A DNA stretch of 64,000 nt, from contig JBFMEB010000008.1 of NCBI GenBank assembly GCA_040753675.1, positions 6,736 through 70,735 on the forward strand, written 5' to 3'. This DNA is from Candidatus Omnitrophota bacterium. GTDB lineage: Bacteria > Omnitrophota > Gorgyraeia > JAHJTE01. The notes under the pieces were generated by a model that saw only the letters and a list, made by a program, of their open reading frames with translations, was not told the DNA's origin and made no database searches. The translations under genes and the position numbers were made by a program. Shown here piece by piece: positions 51,001 to 64,000 of this stretch. Every line of letters starts with the position of its first letter. Position 1 is the first letter of the stretch.

Positions 51001-54000
51001 CGACAGAGAGTTTCTGATATATTTCTTGAGGCTTGTAGCTGGTATGACAATAAGGTCTGATAGCTATTCCTTGGCAATGATGTCTAGAATATTGTCTTTA
51101 GCGCTTTTAAACAAACATTTTAGCTTAGATGTCGTCTCTGAAATTAGCCGCCTCGCCAGACAAAGTTCTACTTCGCCTACCTTTAAGAGAAAAGCCAAAG
51201 ACCGCCTCGTGCCTTTAAGAGAGAAAAAACTATCAGATTTAGACACTGATTTTATTATTTCTTTGCCAAAACATAAGTTTGTCCGTGAGTTATTATCCTC
51301 AAAACTAAAGGGTAAGGATGGAAGAGATATTGAATCAATGGAGTTAAAAGTTGGTAGTTACCCTGATGGAGAAATATTCATAGTAGTTCCCGAGCCAGCG
51401 CGGATTAAGAACAAAAAGGTTTTATTTATCCAGAGAATAGGTAGTAATCAAGACCTTGTTGAGGCAATCTTCATTACTCGCAGCCTCCAGAGACAGTTTG
51501 GGGCAGCTAATATTACGACTATATTACAGGAAGAATTTTTGATTGAACAAAAATTATTAGATATATTGGGCCAGATTAGCAATATTTATGTAACCAAGGC
51601 AGAGTTATTCGACATCAAGGGAGAAGTTTGTTTGTTTGATGAAATCAGGCTTGAAGAATTTAGCCGGGTGGTCAGGCCGAATATTCTTAGTTCCTCAGTT
51701 AGTTTGCTAAAGGCTTTAGTAAAAAGGCTTGTTAAATTCTTCAGCAGTATAGCCCATCATCTCTTGAGGCCTTACCTAAGAAGGAAAGCGATTATCAGAA
51801 AGTTACTTGAAAGAATTAAGATTCCGATAAGAAGTATTGATGTCTTATTGTTTACTCCTGCCTATTTAGGATTAAAGAAAAGAGTTGCTACCTCTGAAAA
51901 ACTGCAGCGAGTTCAGACATGCGGTGTTAATGTTAGGACTTTAGATGAGGCTATTAAGGCCTATGTCAACATAAGCAGCCGCCAAGAGCTAAGAGGTAAG
52001 CGATGTCTTTTAATGCATTCGACTAAGACATTAAACGGTCTAGTCGAGTTATTATTAATCTTATCTGCTTTAGAAGAGGAAAAAGTAAAAAGCGTACAAT
52101 GTTTAATTCCTGGATTTGGTTATGCCAGGGGAGACAAAAACTTCCCACTTGACTCTGAGGAACAGATAGAATTTGGATTAGGACGAGAGGCGCGTAAAAT
52201 TGCAAGCGCTCCAGTTATATTAGAAATTATTGATTCATTTGCGAGCAGGATATTTACCTTCAATATCCATTTCTTAGACAGTGAAGGCGCCCACTTTTTT
52301 AAGGCAATCCCGGGTTTAATAATTCATAATTTGAATGCCTTTAAGAATATTGCTCAATACTTTATGGATAAATATAGATTAGACCCCAAAAATACTGTTT
52401 TAGTTTCCGGGGACAAGAAGGCATTCGGATATGTTCTGCCTGCTGCCAGGACCCTGGGCATATCCGCCGGTTTCATTAGAAAGACGCGCATCTCCTCTGA
52501 TGATGTCAGCGTAGAGGAATATGTTTTTGATGAAAGCGGACAAGTTTTAGACATAAAGGACAAGGATATCATATTCGTCGATGATATTATTTCTACAGGG
52601 GGGACTTTTGTAAGAGGCATACAGGATGTTTTAAAGAAGTTAGGCGCGAGCCGTATATTTGCCGGATGTATTGACGGCATATTCTCTGATAAGCATAAAT
52701 TAGCACTTATTTTAGCCGAGACAGTGGAGCTTGTTTCAACTGATACGATTATATCTGAATATTCCAAAGTTTCTGTAGCAGATATTATCGTTGATTTTCT
52801 TACCAGAGAACAGGATATACACCTAAAACCAAGGCCAGCGACCAGGAAGCCTTACACTACTAAATTTACAAATGTGGCTGGCTTTGTATTAATTCTTTTA
52901 TTTATATGGTGGCAGGTTTTAGGAGGCAGATTTGGTATCGCTGATTTTTGCGCGGTGGCTGCTGTTACGGCTTTAGATATCTCTGGAGACGATATTTTTA
53001 TAAGAACACAATTAGAAAGATTACGCAGGGAACTTGATTTGTGCAAAGAAAAAAGATTTAGGCATAATTTGTTAGCTGCCTTTGATTTAAAAGAAAGCTT
53101 ATCTAAAGCGCAAATTAAGGATTCTTCTTTGAGAAATGCAGTGCAATTAGAAATCAGGAGATTTGATCGTTACCTTGCTTTAGCGACATTAGACGCCGCT
53201 GTTCATGTTGATACTGTGCTACCCGCAGCTACGCAAACAGAAATATTGAGTTTATTCTTAGCTTATTTTGATAGGCAAGAAGTAGAATTTTATGCTGTGC
53301 CGTTTTCTTTTGAAAATCCGATTATCGGGGCACATATGTCGCATCATAAGGGCATTAGACTTTTTGAAATTGCTCTTGTTAGGTATGTATGTTTTCCAAG
53401 GATGAGCGTGCCTGTCGGTGCTAAACCCGGTGAAATTGTGCAGTTAAAAGGATCAGACTTACTTAAAACAGTGCCAGGCTCTGAGAGTATGCTCAAAGGC
53501 TCATTAGGAGGAGAAGTTTTTTCTATCGGCTCTAAATATGATTTACTTCGTTTTGATCCGCCCCAAAGAGAAGCTTTTTTAAACCGCAATCGTAGGTTGA
53601 GTGATGCCTCTGATAGAGAATTCAATTTATTAGTAATTGAGCAGATTGTCAATTTTGTGGATTTCTTGCTTGGTCCAGGACGCGAAGAAGGTGTGCATCC
53701 GGATAAACTATTTATTGTTCGCGGAGATATTAAGTCGATTTTTAGAGACAACGGTATAAACTTACCTCCCCAATATGATAATAATGAACTAACTGTCGGA
53801 GAATTCTCTGAGGCTGTTTATAGAAGTGGTTTGTTTAATAGGCAAGATGATGGGATGCTTCATTTTAACTCTTTCTACGTAGCAGGGTTAGGATTCAGTT
53901 CTATGTTTGGTTTGCCGATCGGTATAAAAGGATCCGGGGTATTACTTATAGCAGCAATTACATTTTTATGCTTAATCTTCCTTTTCAGACAGCAAATATT

Positions 54001-57000
54001 AAATTCGAAACTTGTTAGGTGCGCTCCCACCTGGCTTAGAAAAATTTTACAAAATGTTTCTGCTGGAAACCAAGTCTGTCCGGCCTTTATAGGTTCAGAG
54101 AATAATTCTTTTGTATTAGCGAATACAACAACACTTCACGCCGGAGCCAATACAATCTCTGCTGCGCCTTCTTTGGCATATCGAGATAATACAATATTTT
54201 ATGAGCAATTGGCCCGGCTCCTTAATGATAGAAGATTTATTTTGTTAAATCTTTGGATAAATGCTCATAGCGATCGTTCGCATCCGGTTATAGAGCCGAT
54301 TATAGAAAGAGAGATTGGTAGAATTACCAGAATTTCAGAGGATTGGGCTATTGGTAACTTCAAAGTAAGATTTGATTATATCTTCAGGACCAGCAGTAAT
54401 TATATAGTCTACAAGACCGCTGATAATACAGGGTTTGCAATACGCATCGTTGATAGAGATTTTAAGGATGATATAAATCCTCTCGTCCAGAGGGTTATTA
54501 ACTATGCCGGCAATGTTTTAAAAATTCAAGCTATTTGCCTTGATGATATATATGATAAATGGTTCCGGGACCACGGCTTTAGATTCGCTCCAAATAGAGG
54601 ATACTCGGAAAACGCCTTCTCCAATTCATTAAAGAATGGCACTCCTGTGTTTGTTAATGGTAGAGAATTTGTTGTTGAGAAAGTATTGGGTTATGGTTAT
54701 GAAGCCAAAGTTTTCAGAGTGCGGGCGCAAGATAATGGGGAAACTTTCGCGCTTAAAGTGGGTAGGATAAATTTAAAGGCAGAATATGATTATTGGGCTT
54801 CAGCTTATAGAGAATTTGAAAAAGACCCTGAAAATGTCTGCCGGTTTTTTGTTAAATATTATTCTTACGACCCTCGTTTAAATGCAATTCTGATGGAATA
54901 CGCAGAGGGAATTAATCTGCAAGAACTTATTTTGGGCTCGACAATAGAATTTAGAACTTCATCAAGCAGGGTTGTTAATGCTGTGATTGAAGCAATAGGC
55001 GCACTGGCATATATAAGAAGGAAATTTGGTATTTATCACGGCGATTTAATGTCTAGGCATATCATTGTAAGCGATAACGGCTTTAAGCTTGTTGACCCTA
55101 AATTGCCGGATGGCGTTACAAAAAATAGCCTGAAAGATATATTAAACATAGGTAATCTATTATATTTCATTATTACAGCTGATAAGAATATTCATCATCC
55201 AAATTATTTCCGACTTCGGAAACAAATCAGAGAGGGGAGATTGCCTGATGGTTCAGCCAATGAGCAATCTTGCTGGAGCGAATATTCTAAAAACCCCGCC
55301 CAAGCAGGACTTATTGCAGTAGCAAGAAAATGCTTGTTCGAAGAAAAACTATCTTACACATATGATACAGAAGTTTATGATGATTTAAAGAAATTGAAAA
55401 GAGCCGAGTCAGTTGATTTGATAAATATAAGCCAGCTTTCTCTTCAGGAGAGGGTTGTTACTATAAAACTTAGAAGAAAGCAGCCCGGCAGGCAAGATTA
55501 CTTCGTTGATAAACTTATCTTGGAAAGAATACGGGAAGATTTAATCTTAGGAGGTGTTGCTTCTAATCCCTGGTTAAGCGTTGAACTGGTAGATTCAAAC
55601 CTCTTGTCTAATATTGGAGAAGGAGCAGACATAGAAATAGTCCTCTCAATAAATGCTAATGATATTTTCAGCCAGAAAGCAACAAAACAGATATATGAAA
55701 CAATAGCTAAGCATTTAGAAGATATTGAGGGTTGGGAATTAATTTCAATATCAGAAGACGTCGTTTCATTAGCCCATAGATTGAATTTTCTAAATGATGG
55801 CAGCGGATTTTATTTTATGGGTAGAAATGGCAGCGCAGTTTTTTATCCTTATAATTCGCTTCCTGAAATTAGTAATCCGTTGCAAAATTTAAGCGATGTT
55901 AGAAATATCCTGATTATATGTAATGGCTATTTTGCCGCGGGCGATCAGCTTAATAATAGTCTGATTTTAAAAGGACTTCGTCAGCGTTATCCAGATGCTA
56001 AAATAGAAGTATATTCCAATTATCATAGCATTTGGGCTCAGGCAGCTGTGCCTATTCAATCTCTAAGCTTAAAAGAAAACTACGACCTCGTTATAAATCT
56101 TAATAGCCGTAGGTCTCTTAAATATATGAGCTTACAAGTGTCGGCAAGATACAGAGTAATCAGAACCAGGTCAAAACCGGGTCAGGGTGCATTAGAATAT
56201 ATTTTCATAAGAACTTCTGACAGCCAGTCAGAAATATTTAGACTGGCTATGCCCAAAGAGTTGCCCGCAGGCCGCCAAGATACAAATAGAATTGCTATTA
56301 GTGCTTTGGGCCTAAGTGTTCCTCGTAATCCAATTCAAGTCGTTAGCCCAGAAGACAGAGTGCAAGCAATTAATTTGCTTAAGAGCTTAAGGAGGGATAT
56401 CGGTAGTGATTTAATTATGGTTAGTCCCTTTACCAGCACAGCAATTAAAAATTGGCCGCTAAGTAATTGGGCGCAAATAATAAATTCTATTTTGCTTGAA
56501 TTTCCTAACGTTCATATCTTATTTAACTGTGTTGGTATTAAGAATAATTTCCCGGAATTTTTACAAGGCATTGCCCAAAAACACAGAGTATCGCTGTTAG
56601 AGCAATATCGCCTGGGAGTAATCGAGGAAATTATGAGACAATGTTGTCTCCATATCGGCGGGGATTCATTCCCTGCACATCTTGCATCAGCTTTAGGCAT
56701 AACTACTCTCACTCTTTATGGCCCGACTTCACCCTATGTTGATGCGCCGAGCGCTAACAACGCATTCTGGATAAGCTCGAAAAATCTTGCCGGCCATAAC
56801 TGTTGTAATTTTATGAAATTGCCCTTTGAAGGACATTCTTGTTCTACCAAAAGCTGTATAAGTTATATAAGCGCAAGTGAAGTTTTCACGGCAGTTAAAG
56901 CAATATTAAATGAGAGGCGTCAGATATTTAAAGAAGAAGGAAAGGCAGACTCTTTAATTACTGCTTTTATTGAGGCATCGGATGCCTTTATAATGACGCC

Positions 57001-60000
57001 ACAGGCAGATATAGAGGTAGCCTGGCAAAAATTAAAACAAGCATCTACTAACCTAATAAATATTATGAAGGCCGAATATGTAAATTTTGTTTTCGGCTTT
57101 TTTGATGAATTTGTAGCTGTTATAGAATCTATCCTTCAAGCAGGCAATGCTGACCAGGCTAAATTTCTATGGCGATCTTTTAATGCCCCGCGCTTTTTCT
57201 CAAATTACCCTAACAAAGAAACCCTCCTTAAATCAAATCGTAGTAACTCGTTACTATTATTAAATAAATTGCGACACAATACTTCTGATATAGTTGCTCA
57301 AAGGCAGGCAGCATCGTCATTATTAGAGTCAGCCCACCCAGCAAGAGAAGAGCTGAAAAGACTTTTTAGCCATCCGCGCTTTAGAGAAATTTTTAGCCGC
57401 CATATCAGTTATTTAATCTATCTAGAACGAGCTTACGAACAGGTAGTAACAGAATACATTTCAGAGAGAATTTCAGCTATGTTTGGTGAGGCAGTTATTT
57501 TAACGGATTCGCCTTTAGTTAGAATTAGATTTTCACAAGTAAGGAGCTTAGATTCCTGTATTTTTGATCCTTTAGTTGAAGATTTATTAAGCCCATCTGA
57601 AATTCGATGGATTACTGAAGAGGTTAGAAAATCTATTAAAGGACGCTTCGGCGATGCAGCTGGCCAATATTTCTTGGAAAATAACCAGGAAGATGCTCAG
57701 CTTGAGAGATTAGCTAGAGGGGCAAGTATCTACGAAGCGCTTTTTGAAGAATTTAAAGATTTAGAGAGGTTAATTGATGCCTTGTTGGAAAGGAGGGAAT
57801 TTACTGCCTCCTACATTGCGCGTCTTAAGTTGGTGGCAGAACTAAATGCCGATATTGCCGCAAGGGTTGTTCCTCTAAATGAAAGCAGATTACTCGAAGG
57901 CAGGCGAATAGCTAAAGTGCAAGAAGGTTTGCATGCCAGTTTAGATTTAGATTATCTAATTAATAGGGCAGTAGGAGAAGTCTTAAGACGCACATTGTCT
58001 GATGTAGAAGAGCAAGACATTGAAAGAGTATTATTAGAGACAGGCGGACCTTGTTTGGTTATTTTTAGGACAAGAGAATTCTTTTTAGATCCTAATGTGG
58101 CTAGTTCAAGAGCCTGGGGTTCGTTTATCCTTAGGGATAGCGAAGCTGGCAGGAGCGTTATTATTGATGAAGATAGAATCTTAGCGAGGATTTACCTTGA
58201 TGAGCCAGAATTAAGGAATGCTCTTGGGACCGCACAAGATAGAACAAAACAAGGACTTATCGAAGCAGTTTCTCAAGCATTCGCAGATAAAGTAGAGCGC
58301 GGCGTAATCGGGGACGACAAAGCGAGGTTCAGATTATTGACAGAAAACTTGGGAGATATCGATAGAGATCGAGTAAGTTTCTGTGGGACTTTTAAGGCAA
58401 TTATATTTGATTTAGGTGGAGTGATAAGACGCGTTGATTATTTTAAAGCCGCCCGCGGCTTTGCGCCATATAGCAGCCTGAACGAAGATGAGTTGATAGC
58501 TAAGCTTATAATTCTTGATACAAGAGAGTCTGCAGATAAGGGTGAGATATCATTGGCTGAATTTATAAGTGATGCTAAAGGTGAGTTACAATTAACCAAT
58601 ATCAGCGACCAAGAGTTTGTAAGAATTTATAACGATGTGTTTACTATCAATGAGGATATTGCAAACCTAATTGAAACTCTAAAGACATTAGGGTATAAAG
58701 TGGCAATCATTTCCAATAGCAGCCAAATCAGGCACCAACATATGCTTGATACAATACCCGTACTTTCAAAGATAGACGGATTGTTTTTATCTTATGAACT
58801 CAAAATGAGAAAGCCAGATACAGCTATTTATAGATATGCGTTAGAGCAGTTAGGAGTAAAACCCGAGGAAGCAGTTTTCTTCGATGATACAAAAGAAAAT
58901 GCCGATGTTGCTTCAAGCATAGGAATTTTTGGCTGCTGGGTTGACTATAAGCCCAGCGTGTATGTTAATGCCGCTTTGGAAGAATTAGGAATAATTAATC
59001 AGGATAAAAATTCAACCTTTAGGGAACTTTTAGGTAAAAATTGTGCAGTAAGAACAGTTTCTCAGATACTGGGAGAATCCGTAGAAGAAGTTGCGGATAA
59101 GACTATTAGAGGCGCAGTCAAAACAGGCCGGCCGTTAAATATATATGATTTTAGAGGCAACAAGGTTTCCCTGGCAAAAATTTTAAATGCCATATTTGGC
59201 GCATACCAAAATAAGCTCGTAGATATTAAAATTAAAAGATCCAATATCGTCCTACTTCCTTCTATCTTAAAAATTCTGCCTCCCTTTGCGCTGACTGCCG
59301 CAGTTTACTTTATGGCTGTTGTAGTTACTTCGCTTGGAGCCTTTAGTCTGGTTATCGCACTCTTTGGCATAATTGTCTCTCTTTGTTACGCGGCTTTTAT
59401 TATTGCTACGCTTGGTGAAATTGACCGGGTGGAGATTTTATTCCATGCAGCCCAATTAGGACGCTACAAGTCAATGGTAATTAAGAAATTGGACGATTCA
59501 TTGGAGTGGCATGCAGAAATTGGGCGCGAATGTTCATTTGTATGGAATCCTTCAACTCTTCTGTCTCGTTTAGTGATAGCGAAAAAAATCCCTGCGGAAA
59601 CTCTCGTTGGCGCGGAAGCTACGGAAGTGGAAACTGAACGTAGAGAAACCAGGTTAGCCGGCTTAAATAGTAATATGCAGCGTCAGGCGACAACAATCAG
59701 TTGGGGTATCCGGGCAAGGCGTAATAGTAATCTGGAAACATATCTGGAAGGATTTGATAATCATAGCGATGACATTGAGAATGCCAAAAGAGTTATGCTC
59801 AGCGCTGGGAGTGAAAGAAAACTATTAGTAGAATTAGGGAGCGGAAATACAGCTGTTGGCTTAGCAATAGCGCAAAGAAATAGCGGTATAGACGTCTTAA
59901 CTACAGATAAGTATTCGCTTGGCTTGCTTGAGTCCCCTGCCTATCTTGTATACGCGCAAGCTTGGAGCAGGAGAAGCTTAGCTGCGCAGTTGTCTACTTT

Positions 60001-63000
60001 AGCTAATTTAGCCACAGCGCGTGCAGAGGTGGATATTCTTTTACGTTTAGCTGATAAATCTATAGATTACTTATTAATAGTGAACCCAGAAACAGAGATT
60101 CTCTATGCACTAATCGTCTTATTTAATGAATTTGGTTTAGCAAATAAGTTTAAAGCTAATGCCAGGATAATTATTAGAGCAGACGTTGCGGAGGCAGAAT
60201 TTCTAAAATCACAGATTAATAAAGTTAAATTTGAAAGGTTGGGCCAAGAGCAAGTCTTAGGAGTTAATTTGAAATTAACTTCAGATTGGGCTGATTTTGA
60301 TGGCGATGTTTATATTGGAGCAATATGCCAAGAAAAATATTTCCTTTCTACATCAGAGCGTTATGGAAGCAGATTTCACGTTAGATCGAGGGCACTTGGG
60401 CAGACGATGAACAATACATTAAGAAGAATTGTAGGGCCTGATAATACAGCTCGTTTAATGAAAGCAGCGAGGGCGATGTTGCGGGACGGTATGGATGGGG
60501 CTGGAATTTATACATCATTAGCTGCGCCTCGCACAGGCTTTAGGCGCCTTCTTTCCGATGCAGCGTTGCAAGAAGCAGTCTCTACGGTTTATCGAGAAAT
60601 GCCTTTCTTATTTACTGGAATAACCTACGCGAGAACAGAAAAACATGACCCGGTCACAGAAGAGACAATCCCAGCTTTGCCGGTAATGAGGCTTGCAGTG
60701 GGTGAGCTGGAAAGAGGCGGAGTGCGCCATGGCGCTGAAATAATCATAGCAGACGTGAAAGATGATTATCTTGCGGCCTCTATGAAATGGCTTGAAAATA
60801 TTTTTGGTATTCCCATAGATGAAGCATCATATGAGGAATTTTTGCGATTAAACCTCTTGCACGCGATTGGCAGGAGCGTTTGGAGTCTCTTGCCTGGCTT
60901 TCTGCAGTCAGACTGGGGGAAGTCAGTTAATCCATCAGGTACAATCTGGCAGGCGCGAGCCAGGATATTCGAGGTCCAAGAAGATAGAAAAATGGAAGTA
61001 GATACACCAAATTTAATGATATTGTTTGCAGAAAAGTTTGCACTCTTTTTTAATCCAGGAAGAACCGTTCTAAAAGATACCCTAACTCCTGCCGAAGAGA
61101 GCTATTTCAAAGCAGTAGTCGCATACCTGCAAAGAAGACATAAATGGACAAGCGATTGTTTTGTGATTACTTATAAAGATTTCTTTGGACAGATTCCTCC
61201 GCCGGGGGAAGAAAGAAGTAAATTTCTCTGGAATACTATCAGAGAAGCGCTTTTAAATAATTCGACATTTGAATGGAAAGTTGGGGGACTAAAAGTTAAA
61301 GCACGCCTCGAAGTGATTACCTATGATGGAAAATTTTATGTTTATGTCAATCCGGTTATGGAATCCGAGCCAGACTCGCCGCATCTTCCTGTATATAAGA
61401 TTTTAAGTTCTAAAAAGTTAAGGGCAACAGAATCACTGATGCCTCCAAGCGCTTCATATGGGCTTATCCGTATAGAATTTTTTATAGATGAAGAAGGGTT
61501 AGCTATTTTCTTTAGAGAAATTCAGCCGAGCCGAGCAATGAGACGGGTCACAGCGGGGAGTGTTGGTGATGAGTTAGCCCAAATCCATCAAGCTTGGCCT
61601 AAAGAGTCAATAGACCATATCAGAGTTTTAATTGCAGCAAAATTCGGATTATTGAATTTCTATGGTAGATATCCAACCCCAGAGTTTATAGAGAGAATAG
61701 AAGCAAAAGGGAGCAGAAAACAGGCAAAGCCATTTTATACGGTTCCTTTTGAGGGTTGGGATATCTTGACATCCGCGGGACTTCAGGTGGTTACTAACGG
61801 AGATCGACCTACCAGCTTACAGCCATTTACTGATAAAACATGGTATTCTCGTGTGAGTGAAAAAGTTTTAGCCGCTATTTTATCTGTTACTATTGTTGCT
61901 ATTCTTTTTATCTTTAGCCCTCTATTAGCTAATTATTTGGGTTTGGATTTGAACCTTCAAGCCGGAACAGTTAAGTTAGCAGGGATTGGGTTTGAAAACA
62001 TATCCGGGATCTTGGGTTCTTTGGGCATTTTGGGAGGGGTTTATTATTTAAACAGCATCCTAAGGCAGCGCTCAGCGTTAACAACTTTAAAAGGAAGGTT
62101 TTCTTTGCGGGAAAGGAAGTGTCTATTTTCAGTTACCAGGGCGTCTGCGCCTACCCAATCTGTATATGCAGCAATAAATGCATCTGACGATTTAAGGCCT
62201 AGGTATTCATATTTGACACCAAGTTCAAAGGGCACAGATATATCTTCATCTACGTTTGTTAAGTCACAAATAAATGCATTAAATTCTCGGAAGGCCTCCG
62301 GAGATAAATTGCGTTTAACTTCTTCAAATACTGTCCGCGGTATACGTAGGTTATGTGTTTGGGGTCTCGTAAGTAGTTTATCAAAAAGTGCCCTTGTAGC
62401 TGATTTTTCAACATGGCCAAAGGCAAATATATATTCATTAGAGTCAATGACGATAAGCAAGTTTTTCCCTCCACAGTCTCTCTCTGGTTTTGCGAAGAGT
62501 TTTTATTACCTCCTCTTTAGACATCTTGAAAATTGGCGGAGGATTTTTAGCAATAATTTCTCTGAGTCTCGCAAGCCTCTTTTTGGCTTCTTTGATATTT
62601 TTTCTCATATTTATTCACCTCTAATTGTTACCATACCATATTTATTTAATAATGTCAATATTGCCTCAGAAGCAATCGTCAACTTCGGTGCTATCTTGAG
62701 TAAGATTTTAGTTCCGGTTCACAGCCAGATTATTGGAGCGAGTTTTGGTTTTGGGAATATATCTGGGATTTTTGGTTCTTTCGGAGGCTGGCTAGCGCTA
62801 ATATCATCAACAATTCTCTGCCAAGTGGTGGGGAGCAGAGAACCCGAAGAGAGACAAAGTCTCTATGTAAAACGCGTGGGAGATTTGGCAATCTCTCAGA
62901 TTAGCGTGGATGGTTTTGAAACCTTGACTCCAAAACAAAGGATTCTTGCTTATCACTTGAGTCAAGCTTGCCAGGCGGTATGGGATATTTATTTCTATCA

Positions 63001-64000
63001 ATTAAATCGTTTCGGACTTTATATCCGCCGGCTTCTTGAGGAAATCCTGACGCATCACCAGGGGATCGACTGTGATGTGATGGAAAAAATTTACCGATAC
63101 ACTCTTCGTGTTTGGCTGATGAGAGGTATTTATGATGCTGTAACTGATAAAAAAATTATTCCCGAATTTACAGCCGAAGAATTAACTAACGCTGCAAAAC
63201 AGGCGCGTCACAACGGAGCATTTCGATACTTGGCCAGTGAGGTAGCCCTTCTTCACATGCTGAAAGATTTGCATCAGACCATGTTTGATCCGGAATTTCA
63301 GCCGCTGAAGAAAAATGTGTCGCCTGGCGTAGATAAAATCACTGAGAGTGCAACAAACCTCTATTTTGGCGTAACAGAGGCGGAAGTCGCGTCATTCAAA
63401 CCGCGGTACGCTCTCAATAGCCGTCTTATAAAGTTGTACGGAGAATTGGTTGAGCAAGTTTACCGCGCCGGAGACAGAAAACGTAAAATTCCACCGGGAC
63501 TCTACGTAGATAAAATTACTCTAATCATTGAACATCTTCGCCGGGCAATCCCTTATGCCGAAGCCCCTCAAGCGCAGGCGCTGCGACAGCTCATTCGATA
63601 TTTTCAAACTGGAGAAGAAGAAGATTTTGAACGCTACAATGAGGCGTGGGTGAGAGATGGGGCAGTCGTGGATATTGCGGTTGGCCCTATTGAGGTCTAT
63701 GACGACCCCCTGGCTCAAAAAGGAAGTTTCATGGGAATTGTAAACTTTCTCGATCCGCACATGCAAAAAATAACTTCTTCTTTGCAAGGCCTCGGTCTTT
63801 ATCTGGAGCAATCTGCTCCGTGGGATGATATCTACAAAAAGGCTGAAGTAAATCTTCCGACGATTAGGTTTGTCCAGGACCTCATCAGGACAGGGTTATG
63901 GGGAGGGGTTATCCATCTTGCCGGCGAAAATCTTCCTGATAATCCCCGGTGGCGGGAAAGATACGGCTCTAAGAATACGATTATTCAGAATATTGTTCCC
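2..64000 (+). CDS. Single uninterrupted ORF (frame +2) covering the entire window; internal fragment (no start, no stop in view) of a giant multidomain protein, >=21,333 codons in-window
   Basis: Codon-by-codon reading of + frame 2 found no TAA/TAG/TGA from nt 2 to nt 64000. The phase was re-checked on ~60 individual lines, including all domain junctions and the region 61.8-62.9 kb. Homology-recognisable domains all lie in this one frame. The ORF track lists no + strand frame-2 ORF (all seven + ORFs are frame 3), which is what a stop-to-stop ORF finder gives when a frame has no stop in the window. Codon usage is homogeneous and AT-rich. Confidence 0.85.
1850..2110 (+). other. Degenerate protein-kinase-like / phosphotransferase catalytic-loop region within giant ORF
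   Basis: Translation '...FYISDYKPANIVLTKDAEGQFVAKIVDLDI...' resembles the HxDxKPxNIL catalytic loop plus DFG-like 'DLD' of ePK/APH-fold kinases, but the His is replaced (S). Weak. Confidence 0.3.
2245..2640 (+). repeat. Repeat module A, copy 1 (~130 aa; motif FGGIE...SHEIxAVLNPExTHxxNPIRL), unknown function
   Basis: Translation 'TALISQFGGIEAIIQQFGSLTIQQIKELYQIPESDL...VSHEIFAVLNPEVTHQQNPIRL'. It shares a 59-nt perfectly identical core (2309-2367) with copy 2 at 6305-6363, and a diverged third copy lies at 45470-45900. Confidence 0.8.
3650..4880 (+). other. Glyceraldehyde-3-phosphate dehydrogenase (GAPDH)-like domain inside giant ORF; catalytic Cys/His motifs intact, ~60-aa insertion in NAD domain
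   Basis: 'AIVGINGPGRTGR' matches the GINGFGRIGR NAD motif. 'DNASCTTNCLVP' is the active-site signature. 'LTDHAYTTDQ...ILPGSTGAATAAAKI' and C-terminal 'WYDNETGFSTRMVD' are canonical GAPDH blocks. Confidence 0.9.
4890..6110 (+). other. Phosphoglycerate kinase (PGK)-like domain, circularly permuted: C-terminal ~115 aa (4890-5270) precede the N-terminal ~280 aa (5290-6110)
   Basis: 4890-5270 translates 'DIGPDTIE...ILWNGPLGVVE...AKGTEAIADTIA...IGGGDTL...HVSTGGGAFLEAFQFGVENLPGLKAL', the PGK C-terminal nucleotide-binding half. 5290-6110 translates 'VLIRADFNVPLD...THLGRPNG...LLLENSRF...NDAFAVNHRAHSSNVGV...LIVLLAGGKVADK...LPIDYTVVTD', the PGK residue 1-~285 order. In-frame junctions were verified on lines 4861 and 5221. 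Confidence 0.85.
6245..6600 (+). repeat. Repeat module A, copy 2
   Basis: 'TTLISQFGGIQALINQFGSLTIQQIKELYQIPESDL...VSHEINAVLNPELTHEENPIRL'. The 59-nt identical core 6305-6363 equals 2309-2367. Confidence 0.8.
6650..8110 (+). other. Enolase-like domain (divergent, metal-ligand and catalytic positions present)
   Basis: Blocks align to enolase: 'IELDDKFKAQAENKDKPRFSYIGSEISVGISMIVSIAFAERLGVPL' (IDLDGT.NKSKFGANAILAVS...G.PL). Also present are 'ALDIASSEMY', 'ISCEDWAD', 'QMSDDNVVSN', 'LLIRKFTQAG', 'VVIFSHRGTRPELE' (SHRSGETED block) and 'GKWTLWGPGRGALIAVMNQ'. Confidence 0.75.
8255..8760 (+). other. Degenerate, internally deleted paralog of cofactor-independent phosphoglycerate mutase (apgM-type); metal-binding DGLGD and DHSTP motifs lost
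   Basis: 'KIIYVVLKGAREELEGVAHPNLDNIAKQSALGLINI' parallels '[43 protein letters not shown]' of the intact copy, then jumps to the C-terminal half ('GMDVISFAGKNLTEQIEGL...LVITTDSFDIAP...GSLGVISGQDILSLTLGHAG'). A shared 23-nt identical core lies at 8417-8439 and 9596-9618. Confidence 0.6.
8855..10020 (+). other. 2,3-bisphosphoglycerate-independent phosphoglycerate mutase, archaeal-type (apgM, alkaline-phosphatase superfamily) domain, motifs intact
   Basis: '[13 protein letters not shown]...HHPNLD...PGSGPGHAAIFGY...VVDRRAGRP...LVLTADHSTPARIKAHSFHPVPVLIYS...EKGSLGRIPAKVIMPL' has the full family signature. Confidence 0.85.
10030..10190 (+). other. Predicted transmembrane segment(s)
   Basis: Hydrophobic stretch 'NIFFSIVSGIGLVTPSGLSLELDSISYLLMAGLLFVGLLTHIPVI'. 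Confidence 0.5.
10980..11400 (+). other. Possible class-I SAM-methyltransferase-like Rossmann segment (weak)
   Basis: 'GEMVVHEWGAGDGFSAAVFLDMM' resembles MTase motif I (E/D-x-G-x-G-x-G). No other motif is secure. Confidence 0.25.
16880..17480 (+). other. Pol-beta-superfamily nucleotidyltransferase domain of the CCA-adding enzyme / poly(A) polymerase head type
   Basis: 'VVFAGGSVRDPIFGRFSNDIDFSVAL' matches the GG(A/S)VRD...D.D signature of PF01743-type NTases. A downstream block 'DCTMALNRIAMDMDGKMYGSLFGLFDFLRGKIHFGG...VVRALRTSFG' follows the R-DFTINA/DPxGG/RxxRAxRF pattern. Confidence 0.65.
17830..17950 (+). other. Predicted transmembrane segment
   Basis: 'TTLLSIILLALLFFSGKEAVSLMAMSFMMMATVAEV'. 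Confidence 0.5.
19560..20700 (+). other. Long Q/E/K/D-rich coiled-coil / low-complexity region
   Basis: ~380 aa with heptad-like charged repeats ('...LSQETNEFSQGASNLDELKDKITKRKEEADLSDLDREVDNLKDKAGDIDNQAAEIEKLAKQLEEKAQSLSEA...'). Codon composition shifts to cag/gaa/aaa. Confidence 0.6.
20900..21470 (+). other. von Willebrand factor type A (vWA) domain with MIDAS motif
   Basis: 'GRVCLVIDTSGSMGAAEEGSDLWNVALSTALVL...' carries a DxSGS MIDAS motif and the alpha/beta pattern typical of vWA. Confidence 0.75.
21540..21680 (+). other. Predicted transmembrane segment(s)
   Basis: 'SGILALSLLILVCGFNIFFGANLSEFMGNLAFIFALTV'. Confidence 0.5.
21950..22600 (+). other. AAA+ ATPase domain, MoxR/CbbQ-like (copy 1)
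   Basis: Walker A 'IGPAGTGKN'. '...FAHPEFKFIALANPSAEMEGGGTYVTESLPADVWGRLIQINVGYLPPEEEAELL' matches the MoxR sensor region (ATxNP...EGTY.LPEAxLDRF). Confidence 0.8.
23030..23540 (+). other. AAA+ ATPase domain, MoxR-like (copy 2)
   Basis: Walker A 'VYGPTGSAKTT', Walker B 'AFVDEMDK', sensor 'FFFIGAANPP...GGSELSGEVFDRFSV'. Confidence 0.8.
24695..24772 (+). repeat. 78-nt perfect intragenic direct repeat, copy 1 (core of a ~230-aa paralogous module 24400-25100)
   Basis: nt 24695-24772 are identical to 26669-26746 and encode 'LLLVEETSHLLLPFETDNLTIELATF'. The flanking ~700 nt are paralogous at protein level but diverged. Confidence 0.85.
25140..26270 (+). repeat. Three tandem ~105-aa beta-rich repeats (motif ...G(D/E)(T/I)IPGI(G/K/A)...ISE(G/D)...)
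   Basis: 'ILSVGDTIPGIGGRVVSM...', 'IIASGEIIPGIKNPIYSHIPSISEDEVVTLWVDD...' and 'KIGLRGRTIPGIAGKIRGFNFPDISEDRIITLARVDD...' form three protein-level repeat units. No family assignment. Confidence 0.5.
26669..26746 (+). repeat. 78-nt perfect intragenic direct repeat, copy 2 (core of paralogous module 26380-27050)
   Basis: Identical to 24695-24772. Sits 1974 nt downstream of copy 1. Confidence 0.85.
27150..28200 (+). other. TPR-/HEAT-like alpha-solenoid repeat region (~10 repeats of ~35 aa)
   Basis: Recurring 'A(K/E)..A..IA.ELAKAG....A...' pattern, e.g. 'KAKALVTIAVELNKAGNKTKAKEIFSQA', 'AKAKELFTQAISVAEEV', 'ILTAIVIELAKRGEVDKAHTIANQMA', 'YKAIALADLAYEFARSGD'. Confidence 0.5.
28960..29460 (+). other. 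Polytopic TM module T1 (4-5 predicted helices)
   Basis: 'LYILAAVCLGLLWANWRVVKIIIDRFSNLIKEAKQALFDVAFSVLFHFLVIGG...LCFLMAILSVTALSGFGVASFISKLLRKLQEQRE...' is paralogous to T2. Confidence 0.55.
29530..30050 (+). other. Polytopic TM module T2 (tandem paralog of T1)
   Basis: 'IYILGASCIGLAWLNVRVFQMIISRITSLTKETLQALIEIIGRISCYALVAGL...LYFLAAFLSVTAICGFGVAANISKLLRWVQKKRE...' has the same architecture and shares ~70% nt identity in the 'FLSVTA..GFGVA...SKLLR' stretch. Confidence 0.55.
30590..30800 (+). other. GC-richer (~50%) palindrome-dense patch inside the ORF; 15-bp imperfect inverted repeat with ~60-nt loop plus several short hairpins; possible embedded structured element
   Basis: 'GGCCCCGTTAGAAAG' (30593-30607) pairs with 'CTTTCTAACGGGGCT' (30668-30682). 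Other palindromes are 'TCTCTTTGGAGAGA', 'CGGGATCCCG' and 'GTGACcagagtagGTCAC'. The translation here is low-complexity ('AGPVRKIIFVASQSLPQSVAGGENWLLSNGAGPERSISLERNVGIPKSDQSSHFIRDGKQRSNSAG') between two TM stretches. Confidence 0.4.
31400..31570 (+). other. 2x[4Fe-4S] ferredoxin domain (OFOR delta-subunit-like), set 1
   Basis: 'CDNCDYCVAACPD...HCSECEMCARACPTGAI' gives two CxxCxxCxxxCP motifs. Confidence 0.85.
32170..32900 (+). other. 2-oxoacid:ferredoxin oxidoreductase beta-subunit-like (TPP-binding) domain, set 1
   Basis: 'SRLCQGCPQP' (Cys motif). '[56 protein letters not shown]' matches the GDGG...[11 protein letters not shown] TPP/Mg signature of PorB/KorB. Confidence 0.85.
33560..34100 (+). 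other. OFOR gamma-subunit-like domain, set 1
   Basis: 'IRWHSFAGQGAQVGVKTLGTILHLLGFYSLAWLRFGPERRGAPTAGFNRFSGSPIL...GLKPGGILIVNT' matches the PorC pattern (R.HGRGGQG...FGPERRGAPV...GLK.GG.LIVN). Confidence 0.8.
34205..35310 (+). other. OFOR alpha-subunit-like domain, set 1 (begins with an in-frame ATG exactly where stand-alone PorA proteins start)
   Basis: 'MKFLTGNEASALAIMQNKPGVLGVYPITPSTVAAELIAEEIA...AEDSAQASVIGAQAMGVDAVTITASQGLLRMHELL...DSGWIQVYCSNAQELYDMMIMAPLIA...VIADGFAISHTRE' is the PorA signature (GNEA.A.GA...YPITPSS...SE.AA...TSSQGL.LM.E...RD.GW...DGF..SH). Confidence 0.85.
36810..36950 (+). other. 2x[4Fe-4S] ferredoxin domain (delta-like), set 2
   Basis: 'CVNCQHCVTRCPD...HCKGCSICVGACQD'. 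Confidence 0.85.
37730..38480 (+). other. OFOR beta-subunit-like (TPP-binding) domain, set 2
   Basis: 'GLCRGCDAG' and '[50 protein letters not shown]'. Confidence 0.85.
39150..39720 (+). other. OFOR gamma-subunit-like domain, set 2
   Basis: 'WYSRGGKGAVSANSVLVKFLYSVLGLYPQGFPKFGPERQGAPIEAFATFSG...GLVLDLAAWPEFYKNLGPEAVMVVNT'. Confidence 0.8.
39818..40900 (+). other. OFOR alpha-subunit-like domain, set 2 (also begins with an in-frame ATG: 'MTGCGAAVQ...')
   Basis: 'MTGCGAAVQVIKRTSELIPTMFSGYPITPNT...RADSEHSAISAGLSGVLTGAFAFDASSS...HRGHSDTMLIRDTGFIQIYAATQQEVYDLGMIG...VAMDGFYLTHT' and C-terminal 'VGLVSPTVYRPWQ'. Phase around 39781-39901 was checked directly against the sequence lines. Confidence 0.85.
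41440..41560 (+). other. Predicted transmembrane segment(s)
   Basis: 'TLLLSFALFALFFTNIDIQPLLKVLFDLGSLAFVLGMVF'. Confidence 0.5.
42600..42950 (+). other. Possible degenerate GT9 (heptosyltransferase-like) half-domain
   Basis: 'VLIFMVCGLGDACVRQRVIKIGTEEGF' and '...NLPALITGQDNLSNMLYLNSHTSGRAFVWEILG' weakly echo GT9 N- and C-terminal motifs (ILIIR.SALGDVV; LIGNDSGPMHLAAALG.P.VALFG). Low confidence. Confidence 0.3.
43300..43640 (+). other. GNAT-type N-acetyltransferase-like segment
   Basis: 'VVGSYIVKIELDE...NVDEQLRRKGVGRALLFASIKEA...CRLYIEEDNERMLNLAFQIGFVKEG' includes the motif A Q/R-x-x-G-x-G/A pattern. Confidence 0.5.
43930..44780 (+). other. Histidine-kinase core (DHp H-box + HATPase_c)
   Basis: H-box 'FLIHDLRYRRF', N-box 'MFFNLVMNAVDAM', G1 'LKVSDSGKGMSKE', G2 region 'LHSLGFEFVKQTVADLGGWVAIDSKLGRGTIVIVSLP'. 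Confidence 0.75.
45470..45900 (+). repeat. Repeat module A, diverged copy 3
   Basis: 'IKRFGGIEKILKKG...KIIAHEIQAVLIPDLTHEENLFIDATLSKNPP' conserves FGGIE and HEIxAVLxPxLTHEEN. Confidence 0.55.
46065..47250 (+). other. Acyl-CoA dehydrogenase (ACAD)-like domain; begins at an in-frame ATG ('MARDFVAERV')
   Basis: 'GAIAATEPDAGSDVGNIALKAHEDGEFFVLEGNVNKIFISTAGLADIYIVLA...AFLVEPSMKGFEIGKVEHKLGQRASPTAVLSFTDVRV...GRIGIAAVASGIIEAAFRDAKEYAAQRRQF...[39 protein letters not shown]' has the full ACAD pattern including the YEGT(S/N)xIQ catalytic-Glu block. Confidence 0.85.
48200..48350 (+). other. Highly basic K/R-rich stretch
   Basis: 'PTRAPKPPSQTKTRRKNARRVKRQKGDKSAQREETKVEKSKPQRSETG'. Confidence 0.5.
48640..49250 (+). 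other. Cluster of predicted transmembrane helices (~5)
   Basis: 'IIYLGLFLDLLILAGLSGLFFAHFL...ITFVTVAALILLMASIANA...VWLAISAIVGIAVGGFLNIVM...VIIFIICTSAFYSGFI...SGLAIATIFVLIFGIRFI'. Confidence 0.55.
51820..52760 (+). other. Ribose-phosphate pyrophosphokinase (PRPP synthetase)-like two-domain PRTase fold
   Basis: 'LNGLVELLLILSALEEEKVKSVQCLIPGFGYARGDKN' (cf. LMELLIMIDALKRASA...VIPYFGYARQDRK), 'NIHFLDSEGAHFFKAIPGLIIHNL' (DLHA.QIQGFF.IPVD.L), and PRPP-binding loop 'DKDIIFVDDIISTGGTFVRG'. Confidence 0.7.
52870..52980 (+). other. Predicted transmembrane segment
   Basis: 'FTNVAGFVLILLFIWWQVLGGRFGIADFCAVAAVTAL'. Confidence 0.5.
53900..54010 (+). other. Predicted transmembrane segment
   Basis: 'GFSSMFGLPIGIKGSGVLLIAAITFLCLIFLF'. 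Confidence 0.5.
54650..55330 (+). other. Protein-kinase-like domain (ePK/atypical; DFG replaced)
   Basis: Gly-loop 'VLGYGYEAKVFRV', beta3 Lys 'ETFALKVG', catalytic loop 'IYHGDLMSRHIIVSD', then 'KLVDPKL' in place of DFG. Confidence 0.6.
55900..56790 (+). other. Glycosyltransferase family 9 (LPS heptosyltransferase-like) domain
   Basis: N-terminal 'NILIICNGYFAAGDQLNNSLILKGLRQRYPDAKIEVY...DLVINLNS' and C-terminal 'IMVSPFTSTAIKNWPLSNWAQIINSIL...MRQCCLHIGGDSFPAHLASALGITTLTLYGPTSP' (cf. GNDSGPMHLAAALG.P.VALFGPT.P). Confidence 0.8.
58390..58950 (+). other. HAD-superfamily hydrolase domain (subfamily IA-like)
   Basis: Motif I 'AIIFDLGGVI', motif II 'VAIISNSS', motif III 'RKPD', motif IV 'AVFFDDTKENADVA'. 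Confidence 0.75.
59260..59420 (+). other. Predicted transmembrane segments (2)
   Basis: 'LPPFALTAAVYFMAVVVTSLGAFSLVIALFGIIVSLCYAAFIIATLG'. Confidence 0.55.
59800..60300 (+). other. Possible class-I SAM methyltransferase-like segment
   Basis: 'RKLLVELGSGNTAVGLAIAQRNSGIDVLTTDKY' resembles MTase motif I plus the acidic residue of motif II. Confidence 0.35.
61860..62040 (+). other. Gly-rich hydrophobic (TM-like) segment immediately upstream of the nested TA cassette
   Basis: 'VLAAILSVTIVAILFIFSPLLANYLGLDLNLQAGTVKLAGIGFENISGILGSLGILGGVYY'. A 45-50-nt imperfect direct repeat lies on the other side of the cassette (62730-62790). Confidence 0.5.
62044..62460 (-). CDS. vapC: PIN-domain toxin (VapC-like), 138 aa, probable TTG start preceded by GGAGG
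   Basis: Track ORF 'MLIVIDSNEYIFAFG...FEEVKRNL...DAFIAAYTDWVGADALVTENRHF...' has PIN hallmarks: N-terminal acidic 'IDSN', central Glu, 'D.LIAA.A', and 'LVTxNxxF'. GGAGG (rc of 62468-62472) lies 7 nt upstream of the TTG at 62460. The TAA stop lies at 62041-62043. Its start overlaps the stop of the upstream small ORF. Confidence 0.7.
   Translation of the reverse strand: MLIVIDSNEYIFAFGHVEKSATRALFDKLLTRPQTHNLRIPRTVFEEVKRNLSPEAFREFNAFICDLTNVDEDISVPFELGVKYEYLGLKSSDAFIAAYTDWVGADALVTENRHFLSRKENLPFKVVNAERCLRMLFK
62444..62608 (-). CDS. Small basic helical protein (54 aa), putative cognate antitoxin; family not recognised
   Basis: rc of 62444-62608 gives ATG...TGA = 'MRKNIKEAKKRLARLREIIAKNPPPIFKMSKEEVIKTLRKTRERLWREKLAYRH*'. 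The Shine-Dalgarno AGAGGTGA lies 6 nt upstream. The 3' end overlaps the vapC start by 17 nt (typical TA coupling). It was not in the ORF track (<60 aa). Confidence 0.5.
   Translation of the reverse strand: MRKNIKEAKKRLARLREIIAKNPPPIFKMSKEEVIKTLRKTRERLWREKLAYRH
62615..62622 (-). promoter_or_regulatory. Shine-Dalgarno (AGAGGTGA) for the small antitoxin-like ORF
   Basis: rc of 'TCACCTCT' at 62615-62622, 6 nt from the ATG at 62608. Confidence 0.55.
62630..62658 (-). promoter_or_regulatory. Sigma70-like promoter for the TA operon: -35 TTGACA (rc of 62653-62658), 17-nt spacer, -10 TATGGT (rc of 62630-62635); palindrome CAATATTG overlaps -35
   Basis: The minus-strand sequence reads '...GAGGCAATATTGACATTATTAAATAAATATGGTATGGTAACAATTAGAGGTGAATAAATATG'. 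Confidence 0.5.
62700..62830 (+). other. Gly-rich hydrophobic segment immediately downstream of the TA cassette (paralog of 61980-62040)
   Basis: 'IIGASFGFGNISGIFGSFGGWLALISSTILCQVVG' parallels 'LAGIGFENISGILGSLGILGG'. At nt level, 'ggttttgggaatatatctgggatttttggttctttcggagg' is ~80% identical to 'gggtttgaaaacatatccgggatcttgggttctttgggcattttgggagg'. Confidence 0.5.

Follow-up and report, generated by a model that had tools for sequence, protein, structure and literature searches.

The closest described counterparts of the element analysed here are the VapBC operons, type II toxin-antitoxin (TA) systems. The element is a cassette of ~620 bp on the minus strand of a 64,000-nucleotide stretch of DNA from a Candidatus Omnitrophota bacterium (assembly GCA_040753675.1, contig JBFMEB010000008.1, positions 6,736 to 70,735; this whole stretch is referred to below as the window), where it lies antisense inside a giant open reading frame (ORF) that fills the plus strand. 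Like the VapBC operons, it has a gene with a predicted PIN fold matching VapC and conserved acidic residues, a small overlapping gene upstream, its own sigma70-type promoter and a compact size, and it is found in many copies per genome with a patchy distribution among phyla. Unlike them, its toxin sequence scores under the Pfam PIN threshold, and its small protein has neither an AbrB, RHH, PHD or HTH domain nor a detectable relative among known antitoxins. We know of no described VapBC operon with a selected full-length open frame on the opposite strand, and the literature searched held no prior description of a TA operon with a selected pass-through frame of this kind. The toxin adds a new member to a known kind, VapC/PIN; what appears undescribed is a TA operon with a selected opposite-strand frame that recurs in phase within giant genes. 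We regard the cassette as probably a mobile VapBC-like operon whose selected pass-through antisense frame lets translation of the host gene continue across it.

Mobile inserts that lie in phase within proteins are said to exist in Rickettsia as palindromic elements. The cassette resembles these in being, as we read it, a selfish in-phase insert that adds a peptide and leaves the host ORF intact. The Rickettsia elements are, however, non-coding palindromes of 100-150 bp, whereas the cassette is ~620 bp long, carries a promoter and two genes on the opposite strand, and also exists as a separate bridging ORF between host genes. Small TA cassettes reportedly stabilise chromosomal regions, for example chromosomal integrons. 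As in those arrays, the present cassettes are small, promoter-bearing, embedded in host arrays and often flanked by repeats, and they plausibly penalise deletion of the surrounding DNA; unlike the integron cassettes, they lie inside coding sequence or operons and appear adapted for read-through. No integrase or attC site was noticed, although no search aimed at such integron features was made.

Antisense overlapping genes have been put forward as embedded candidates in Escherichia coli (bioRxiv 10.1101/2020.11.18.388249) and as asp in HIV-1 (PMC8781085). In the cassette, too, a long ORF lies fully antisense to genes and is depleted of stops, and its free-standing copies have a start of their own, often with a Shine-Dalgarno site. 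It differs in that the overlap covers an entire two-gene operon together with its promoter, ~200 codons in at least six phyla, and in that the product looks unstructured and can fuse into a host protein, which suggests that its translation matters more than the protein. The host ORF recalls the Archaeovorin-type giant genes that West-Roberts et al. 2023 (10.1101/2023.11.21.568195) described in Omnitrophota, for which SecA-DEAD-like and protease domains were reported as typical. It shares with them a very long single frame, many hydrophobic segments and sugar-metabolism/glycolysis domains, and the nearest relatives of its cassette come from Omnitrophota metagenome-assembled genomes (MAGs). In the 59 kb scanned (nt 5003-64000) of this gene, which extends beyond the window, an M49 peptidase module was found but no SecA or SecA-DEAD domain. 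Term searches found no mention of antisense, nested or opposite-strand genes in that description or in a 2026 survey of Omnitrophota genomes (10.64898/2026.06.07.730766).

The minus-strand operon and its two proteins

The first-pass annotation of the window, made from the letters alone, had proposed a VapBC-like operon nested antisense in the giant ORF. The features of this operon are as follows.

62041..62660, minus strand: cassette, ~620 bp, with its limits about 2 codons beyond the PIN stop codon and just outside the -35 box
62044..62460, minus strand: VapC-like PIN-domain gene, 138 aa, TTG start (from the ORF, its homologues and the predicted fold)
62444..62608, minus strand: small ORF, 54 aa, ATG start, basic and helical, in the antitoxin position (from the ORF and its conservation beside the PIN gene)
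62467..62472, minus strand: Shine-Dalgarno site GGAGGG of the PIN gene, 6 nt before the TTG (ccctcc on the plus strand)
62615..62622, minus strand: Shine-Dalgarno site AGAGGTGA of the small ORF, read from the sequence (tcacctct on the plus strand)
62630..62658, minus strand: sigma70-type promoter TTGACA-17 nt-TATGGT with a TG extension, the top promoter-like site of the region (-35 box TTGACA at 62658-62653; TATGGT ending at 62630)

The limits of the cassette were set by homology, at the edges beyond which the antisense translations of different loci cease to resemble each other. These edges read '(Y/N)YL...' at one side and '...NV(N/K)', over the -35 box, at the other; as the homology to other copies ends about two codons past the PIN stop codon and just beyond the -35 box, the cassette was taken to span ~62041-62660. 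The promoter was present where the first-pass annotation had put it, as were the Shine-Dalgarno sites AGAGGTGA (small ORF) and GGAGGG (PIN ORF), and the toxin start overlaps the antitoxin-like stop, as it had said, by 17 nt. It had also drawn a palindrome over the -35 box, and an 8-bp AT-rich palindrome, CAATATTG (62656-62663), does overlap this box; it is, however, short and is not kept in relatives, and no operator palindrome was conserved in a promoter alignment of 50 loci. A TTGACA-17-TAnnnT promoter and a GAGGTGA site are placed at fixed spacing from the ATG in nearly all of ~50 loci, indicating that the cassette is an autonomous transcription unit. Judged by its sequence, the minus-strand feature is an intact autonomous two-gene operon with its own promoter and Shine-Dalgarno sites. 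Known RNA families gave no match around the cassette, and the PADLOC defence-system models matched neither the PIN protein nor the small protein nor the antisense product.

The Pfam PIN model (PF01850) aligned with the window 138-aa sequence over positions 1-115 of 120 but scored only E=0.13 and 13.3 bits against a cutoff of 23.6. The NCBIfam match was likewise sub-threshold, and PDB sequence searches with the single 138-aa sequence and with the family profile returned nothing useful. Because the window sequence falls below the Pfam threshold, the PIN assignment was built on homologues and predicted fold. There are 729 homologues, at up to 71% identity over the full length, all of them free-standing and ~136-141 aa long, some with a VapC or PIN annotation; Pfam PIN was matched at E<=0.01 by 13 of 25 family members, the best at 2.5e-6. 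An AlphaFold model of the protein had a predicted local distance difference test (pLDDT) value of 87.9 and a predicted template-modelling score (pTM) of 0.84, and its top Foldseek matches in the PDB were VapC toxins, namely 3zvk_B (E=1.6e-4), 6sd6_D (template-modelling score, TM, 0.70) and M. tuberculosis VapCs, with probability 1.0 and a TM range to VapC structures of 0.6-0.7. Homologues and model together support the 138-aa ORF as a VapC-like PIN-fold protein, in line with the first-pass annotation, and hidden Markov model (HMM) searches of both ORFs identified PIN through the family members of the longer one, while no family was found for the 54-aa ORF.

The acidic residues D6, E47, D93 and E111 (plus D73), which by analogy are putative catalytic positions, are invariant or nearly so in 25 homologues and in all 54 locus copies. 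D6, E47, D73, D93 and E111-N112-R113-H114 are all present in the window copy and in every nested one, and the PIN toxin operon looks functional. As a called gene, the window PIN protein is not on record in a 153-billion-gene index, presumably because gene callers report only the giant ORF. Gene callers give the giant ORF or the antisense ORF at such loci, so that nested TA genes are missed and are likely to be lacking systematically from protein databases.

The small ORF lies beside the PIN gene, upstream of it, in nearly all of the 55 loci (~50), with overlaps of 17, 20, 23 or 26 nt that correspond to one relative frame of the two genes. Its consensus is ..AKK.L..LR...AK..SP..GM..EE.I..LRKTRE.LWEEKLA.R. 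Neither Pfam nor NCBIfam holds a family for the window 54-aa protein, no consistent Pfam family was found among 25 members of the small-protein family, and a PDB profile search gave no significant match (best E=0.019, a RelE chain). As the protein has no recognisable domain, it is its position that suggests an antitoxin role. Of the antitoxin-like ORF described by the first-pass annotation there remains a conserved, basic protein in the antitoxin position, without a known antitoxin or DNA-binding domain; the 54-aa and PIN proteins may act as a toxin-antitoxin pair in addiction or defence.

Selection against stops in the antisense frame

The frame of the host ORF, plus frame 2, is unbroken across the cassette, as first noted from the letters: it has 0 stops in 62026-62744, where the other two plus frames have 18 and 16.

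62042..62674, plus strand: pass-through frame, the host-frame translation of the antisense strand of the cassette, 211 aa, stop-free, with stop avoidance attributed to selection

Its 211 residues include 35 Ser, 23 Leu and 17 Arg, which makes it the S/L/R-rich linker that had been described. A chance test was used in which the codons of the minus-strand genes were resampled with the codon usage of the host ORF and the non-coding parts were shuffled. Plus frame 2 was open by chance in 0.6% of the codon resamplings and in 3.2% of the non-coding shuffles, jointly ~2e-4. For the window PIN gene alone, synonymous permutation kept the register open in 22% of trials.

Relatives of the cassette were then analysed at loci gathered via exact protein look-up (8 loci) and from species-representative genomes (69 loci). 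The register that the window keeps open reads each antisense codon over the third base of a PIN codon and the two bases that begin the following one. Along the PIN gene, 47 of 55 loci had no stop in this register, against 6.2 expected under a within-gene permutation of synonymous codons, which treats loci as independent; the mean was 0.22 stops per PIN gene against 1.80 expected. The other two antisense registers of the PIN gene contained 2-21 stops, mostly 5-18. The small ORF is codon-aligned with the same physical frame, so that antisense stops would there come from TTA, CTA and TCA codons, and the shares of these codons differ sharply between the two genes.

TTA share of Leu codons: small ORF 0.9%, PIN gene 25.5%
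CTA share of Leu codons: small ORF 0.4%, PIN gene 9.3%
TCA share of Ser codons: small ORF 1.8%, PIN gene 22%

A further signature is found at third bases. Ahead of Tyr codons, T makes up 1.1% and C 1.6% of these bases, against backgrounds of 35.7% and 23.6%, and ahead of His or Gln codons T makes up 3.1%; the Arg codons of the invariant Arg113-His114 pair are AGA, AGG, CGA, CGC and CGG but never CGT. This context-dependent codon avoidance is seen alike in nested and free-standing copies, and it follows a single physical frame of the opposite strand across both genes, which are themselves in different frames, and across the promoter. The only explanation that we can offer for such frame-specific avoidance is selection on that frame, either to be translated or to be translatable. 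By the same statistics, the open antisense frame is a selected property of the whole cassette family, seen in ~55 relatives in at least six phyla, and not a local accident.

We give next to no credence to an origin of the open frame in chance or base composition, as a mere shadow ORF of the real gene on the other strand. This idea can appeal to a register whose third codon positions coincide with those of the PIN gene and in which stops are a priori least likely, to the 22% of permutations in which the window PIN gene alone stays open, and to other long minus-strand shadow ORFs in the window. Yet it would have to account for the excess of 47 loci over 6.2, for the near-absence of TTA, CTA and TCA from the small ORF but not from the PIN gene of the same operon, for the context-specific avoidance at third bases and for the joint probability obtained in the window. 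The earlier proposal that selection keeps both strands readable is borne out by the codon statistics of family and window alike. Its further wording, that the cassette was inserted in or overprinted on a linker, stands in its first part: as the open frame is typical of the family everywhere, including outside giant genes, the cassette would have been inserted or fused in, and not overprinted. Local adaptation of the frame to this particular giant gene was considered and rejected, free-standing relatives in other phyla avoiding stops alike.

Fused and free-standing copies of the cassette

The frame is fused into giant ORFs at 17 loci, namely the window, 12 Omnitrophota MAGs or single-amplified genomes and 4 Planctomycetota MAGs, and there it is open over the whole sequence examined (1.1-20.4 kb), although this 'giant' class is itself defined by the frame being open, a selection bias. 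The flanks of the 17 fused loci are mutually unrelated, pointing to many independent contexts. A quick neighbour-joining tree built from the PIN proteins has nested copies scattered among free-standing ones in at least four clades, and the nearest relatives of the window cassette are those of two Omnitrophota MAGs (L009 and L010). The surroundings of the window cassette are as follows.

61850..61951, plus strand: hydrophobic, transmembrane-like host-linker segment upstream of the cassette (Kyte-Doolittle >=1.5 over 19 aa)
61986..62025, plus strand: left copy of a direct repeat, encoding GFENISGILGSLG (from repeat comparison)
62745..62784, plus strand: right copy of the repeat, encoding GFGNISGIFGSFG, overlapped by the hydrophobic segment 62765-62821
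62828..64000, plus strand: next host module, M49-like peptidase (PF03571, 2.3e-16; N-terminal two thirds, query residues 810-1200)

The first-pass annotation had placed the cassette between two paralogous Gly-rich hydrophobic segments with imperfect direct repeats, and this was confirmed: the two copies, of 40 nt, are 80% identical and are spaced by 759 nt, or 253 codons. The motif that they encode, G.GF.NISGI[LF]GS[LF]G, occurs at only these two sites in the 21,333 aa of the host frame. Over 14 codons the copies are separated by 5 synonymous changes and 4 non-synonymous ones, and this surplus of synonymous change suggests that both are translated; the repeat would be an old duplication, with a Gly-rich hydrophobic peptide still encoded by either copy. 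At 17 of 48 loci, above the 99th percentile of controls with mismatched flanks, the cassette is bracketed by locus-specific direct repeats, 15-136 nt long, and their variable length argues against a fixed target duplication of the transposase type. At L045 (cassette 6430-6986) the flanking repeat, 136 nt long with ~85% identity, codes for the hydrophobic N-terminal segment of a pseudopilin-like host-strand gene, and at L001 (cassette 5852-6411) an 87-nt palindromic element is found at both flanks. The module from ~62828 aligns with free-standing M49-like peptidases (650-700 aa) starting at their residues 5-80, that is, with the M49-like N-terminus, which places the cassette in an inter-module linker. 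To find an orthologous giant gene, nt 61001-64000 were put to a word-indexed protein search, which gave nothing; an exhaustive HMMER search returned free-standing M49-like peptidases, antisense ORFs and partial matches to the upstream module, with nothing spanning both flanks; and a metagenome scan with the M49 module gave no relative.

It seems highly improbable that the giant ORF is not translated through the cassette, with translation restarting at each module or the fusion decaying, so that the match in phase would come from the ORF of the cassette plus a one-in-three chance. The cassette does supply its own open frame, four loci (L053, L054, L001 and L058) have it between two large host-strand ORFs without fusion, and the bias in the definition of the fused class counts in the same direction. 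Against this, both junctions and the non-cassette linkers of the fused copies are stop-free, the shuffled non-coding part of the window being open in only 3.2% of cases; the fused copies, L029 excepted, lack the upstream stop and ATG that mark free-standing ones; the window repeat copies show more synonymous than non-synonymous change; and the entire 64-kb frame is open.

Where the cassette is free-standing, in Nitrospirota, Scalindua, Desantisbacteria, Nitrospinota, Thermodesulfovibrionia and some Omnitrophota, the frame forms an ORF of 200-260 codons from the PIN stop codon to just beyond the -35 box. An in-frame ATG is found at the PIN stop codon in 33 of 34 free-standing loci, 4-6 codons before the antisense motif SAVKTLKG and usually directly after an in-frame stop. 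A GGAG, GAGG or AGGA core lies 4-17 nt upstream of this ATG in 18 of 33 cases, compared with 11.9% for other ATGs of the same strand (P=4e-9). This ATG can form only if the PIN codon that precedes the C-terminal Ile has C as its last base, and is thus not a by-product of the PIN protein sequence. The window copy, like the other fused copies except L029, has no start of its own. That the free-standing copies are recent escapees from giant genes was ruled out, because clades that are solely free-standing (Nitrospirota, Scalindua) keep the open frame with synonymous turnover and a conserved ATG, often with a Shine-Dalgarno site.

This conserved start, together with the 32 database entries (131-285 aa) in which gene callers predict the antisense ORF as a protein, would also be expected of a functional third protein, for example a membrane-associated or regulatory one, the cassette being a dual-coding three-gene module and its fusion to giant ORFs a by-product. 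The persistence of stop avoidance in clades never found nested fits such a protein, as does a confidently predicted long Phe-rich helix at residues 146-210. That helix is, however, the only confident element in an AlphaFold model with a pLDDT of 56.5 and a pTM of 0.24, in which residues 26-140 stay below 50. Neither Pfam nor PADLOC matched the antisense product, and its C-terminal end is unconserved, varying in length and sequence. As the third codon positions coincide, the PIN and small-ORF codons leave the complementary product almost no freedom in sequence, and it gives no sign of independent selection at the amino-acid level, and in the 17 fused loci the start of the ORF is lost and the ORF is merely part of the host protein. 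An unstructured product with an unconserved C-terminus favours a role of translation as such over one of the resulting protein, and we consider a functional third protein improbable.

The cassette is also oriented in a consistent manner. Of the 60 nearest long ORFs of free-standing loci, 50 have the orientation opposite to that of the cassette; in 23 of 28 loci the end of a host-strand ORF is no more than 300 nt from the cassette (median gap 150 nt), and the antisense ORF abuts its neighbours in L013, L025, L040, L053 and L054. Such an arrangement could serve the regulation of the cassette itself, the host-strand transcript being kept stable and Rho-resistant by translation and acting as a long antisense RNA or collision partner that sets TA expression and ties toxin activation to transcription of the host operon or giant gene around it. 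Rho suppresses untranslated antisense RNA, and TA modules with labile antitoxins are sensitive to transcriptional shut-off. A strong promoter faces the host transcription unit in nearly all copies, the cassette is consistently antisense to its neighbours, and the antisense ORF usually spans the whole operon including the -35 box, all of which would suit this proposal. Regulation alone does not, however, explain in-phase fusion over thousands of codons on both sides, and it is compatible with continued host translation and not exclusive of it; as the explanation of the open frame we judge it unlikely, if slightly less so than a third protein.

The cassette normally sits backwards relative to the surrounding host genes. 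On the reading that we prefer, that of a mobile operon with a pass-through frame, ribosomes on the host transcript would be able to traverse the ~620-bp insert because the antisense frame is open. Between host genes the frame forms a bridging ORF of its own, starting at an ATG that is often preceded by a Shine-Dalgarno site; in the giant genes of Omnitrophota and Planctomycetota it is fused in phase, the window gaining ~210 linker residues that are predicted to be mostly disordered. Continued translation would leave the giant protein untruncated and would avoid Rho-dependent polarity on downstream genes, and translating ribosomes could aid RNA polymerase through its head-on conflict with the promoter of the cassette. 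The purpose of the open frame may lie in either effect, the avoidance of host truncation or that of polarity and head-on conflict. A far strand kept free of stops across two genes and a promoter would make this a cassette built for read-through, a selfish operon that limits its own cost. Stop avoidance in a foreign insert would also be independent evidence that the giant ORFs of these predatory ultra-small bacteria are translated continuously, and the cassette could become a test system for giant genes, for translation-transcription coupling and for polarity.

Several points weigh against this reading. Rho-dependent polarity, a general bacterial feature like transcription-translation coupling, is assumed to hold for these phyla. 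The protein, HMMER and metagenome searches found no orthologous giant gene with an empty site, and the signs of an insertion event are confined to the flanking repeat and the unrelated contexts of the other copies. Likewise, it is the absence of stops and the codon statistics that suggest translation of frame 2 through the cassette, and of the giant ORF as a whole. The loci share descent, so that locus counts are not fully independent and the permutation statistics overstate independence, although the synonymous codons have turned over. The PIN sequence of the window itself scores under the Pfam threshold, the small protein has no recognisable antitoxin or DNA-binding domain, and a conserved ATG with a Shine-Dalgarno site would also be expected if the antisense product had a function.

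The host giant ORF and other nested genes

The host frame is a head-to-tail fusion of ordinary metabolic enzymes, and not a repeat adhesin: enzyme modules and hydrophobic linkers are chained in frame, with 37 hydrophobic 19-mers, and complete lower-glycolysis enzymes and two full subunit sets of 2-oxoacid:ferredoxin oxidoreductase follow one another without an intervening stop.

2..64000, plus strand: giant host ORF in plus frame 2, stop-free for 21,333 codons and extending beyond both ends of the window
~5282-6112, plus strand: PGK module
~7313-8065, plus strand: enolase module
~8855-9994, plus strand: iPGM (phosphoglycerate mutase) module
~21989-23311, plus strand: AAA ATPase module
~31397-34765 and 36791-40978, plus strand: two 2-oxoacid:ferredoxin oxidoreductase sets
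~46043-47236, plus strand: acyl-CoA dehydrogenase module
~51965-52657, plus strand: PRPP synthase module
~54671-55096, plus strand: protein kinase module
~56399-56785, plus strand: glycosyltransferase (GT9) module
~58391-58921, plus strand: HAD hydrolase module
~63476-63997, plus strand: M49 peptidase domain match

Every ORF of at least 95 aa outside plus frame 2 is on the minus strand; the longest (4792-5478, 228 aa) overlaps the PGK module, and there are 16 others. Ten such ORFs of 109-228 aa were examined as further nested genes and set aside, as they had no Pfam match and are probably shadow ORFs.

Antisense-nested PIN genes were also found in other giant ORFs. Six belong to a second family, PIN_3 (PF13470), with E values of 1e-15 to 1e-23, and are given below by locus, each on the plus strand of its locus and antisense to the giant ORF.

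L030:1614-2168, PIN_3 gene
L034:1569-2000, PIN_3 gene
L036:5249-5665, PIN_3 gene
L036:6020-6442, PIN_3 gene
L037:623-1075, PIN_3 gene
L041:10925-11332, PIN_3 gene

In addition, L020:8606-9076 is a second copy of the studied PIN family in that locus. None of these additional nested PIN genes interrupts the giant frame, and with them antisense-nested PIN genes seem to be general in such giant genes. A bolder proposal, to which we attach a minor though not negligible probability, is that the cassette is a true dual-coding module, with ~620 nt coding on both strands in at least six phyla, and that PIN cassettes from at least two families are functionally integrated into giant genes as addiction anchors, their toxin expression coupled head-on to giant-gene transcription. 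If so, this would be the longest conserved fully antisense gene overlap known in bacteria, the pass-through frame would let PIN TA operons colonise the interior of host genes, and the anchors would make the deletion-prone giant genes of Omnitrophota and Planctomycetota hard to lose.

In two Omnitrophica CG12 loci, L005 and L017, the antisense frame is open over 443 codons (L005:5838-7166), across both the PIN cassette and an adjacent two-gene unit, and sits between minus-strand ORFs of >3,200 aa and 1,341 aa. The two-gene unit, on the plus strand of L005, comprises 6606-6842 (78 aa) and 6846-7262 (138 aa; Asp_protease_2/gag-asp_proteas, retropepsin-like), and a second, retropepsin-like type of cassette may thus share the pass-through property.

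Along several other giant ORFs, lineage-specific peptide motifs recur and are also found flanking the cassette, with SSPV, for example, occurring 15 times in 6,804 aa of L010; no recurrent junction motif was found in the window giant ORF.

L010, L034, L041, L030: SSSP[VAIL]
L049, L048: RG(G)AGGG
L060: RANAFG[AG]G[WL]LLAL
L029, L036: PIHAPPV

These could be module-junction, processing or ribosome-arrest motifs, and PIHAPPV may be similar to the RAPP/RAGP arrest peptides.

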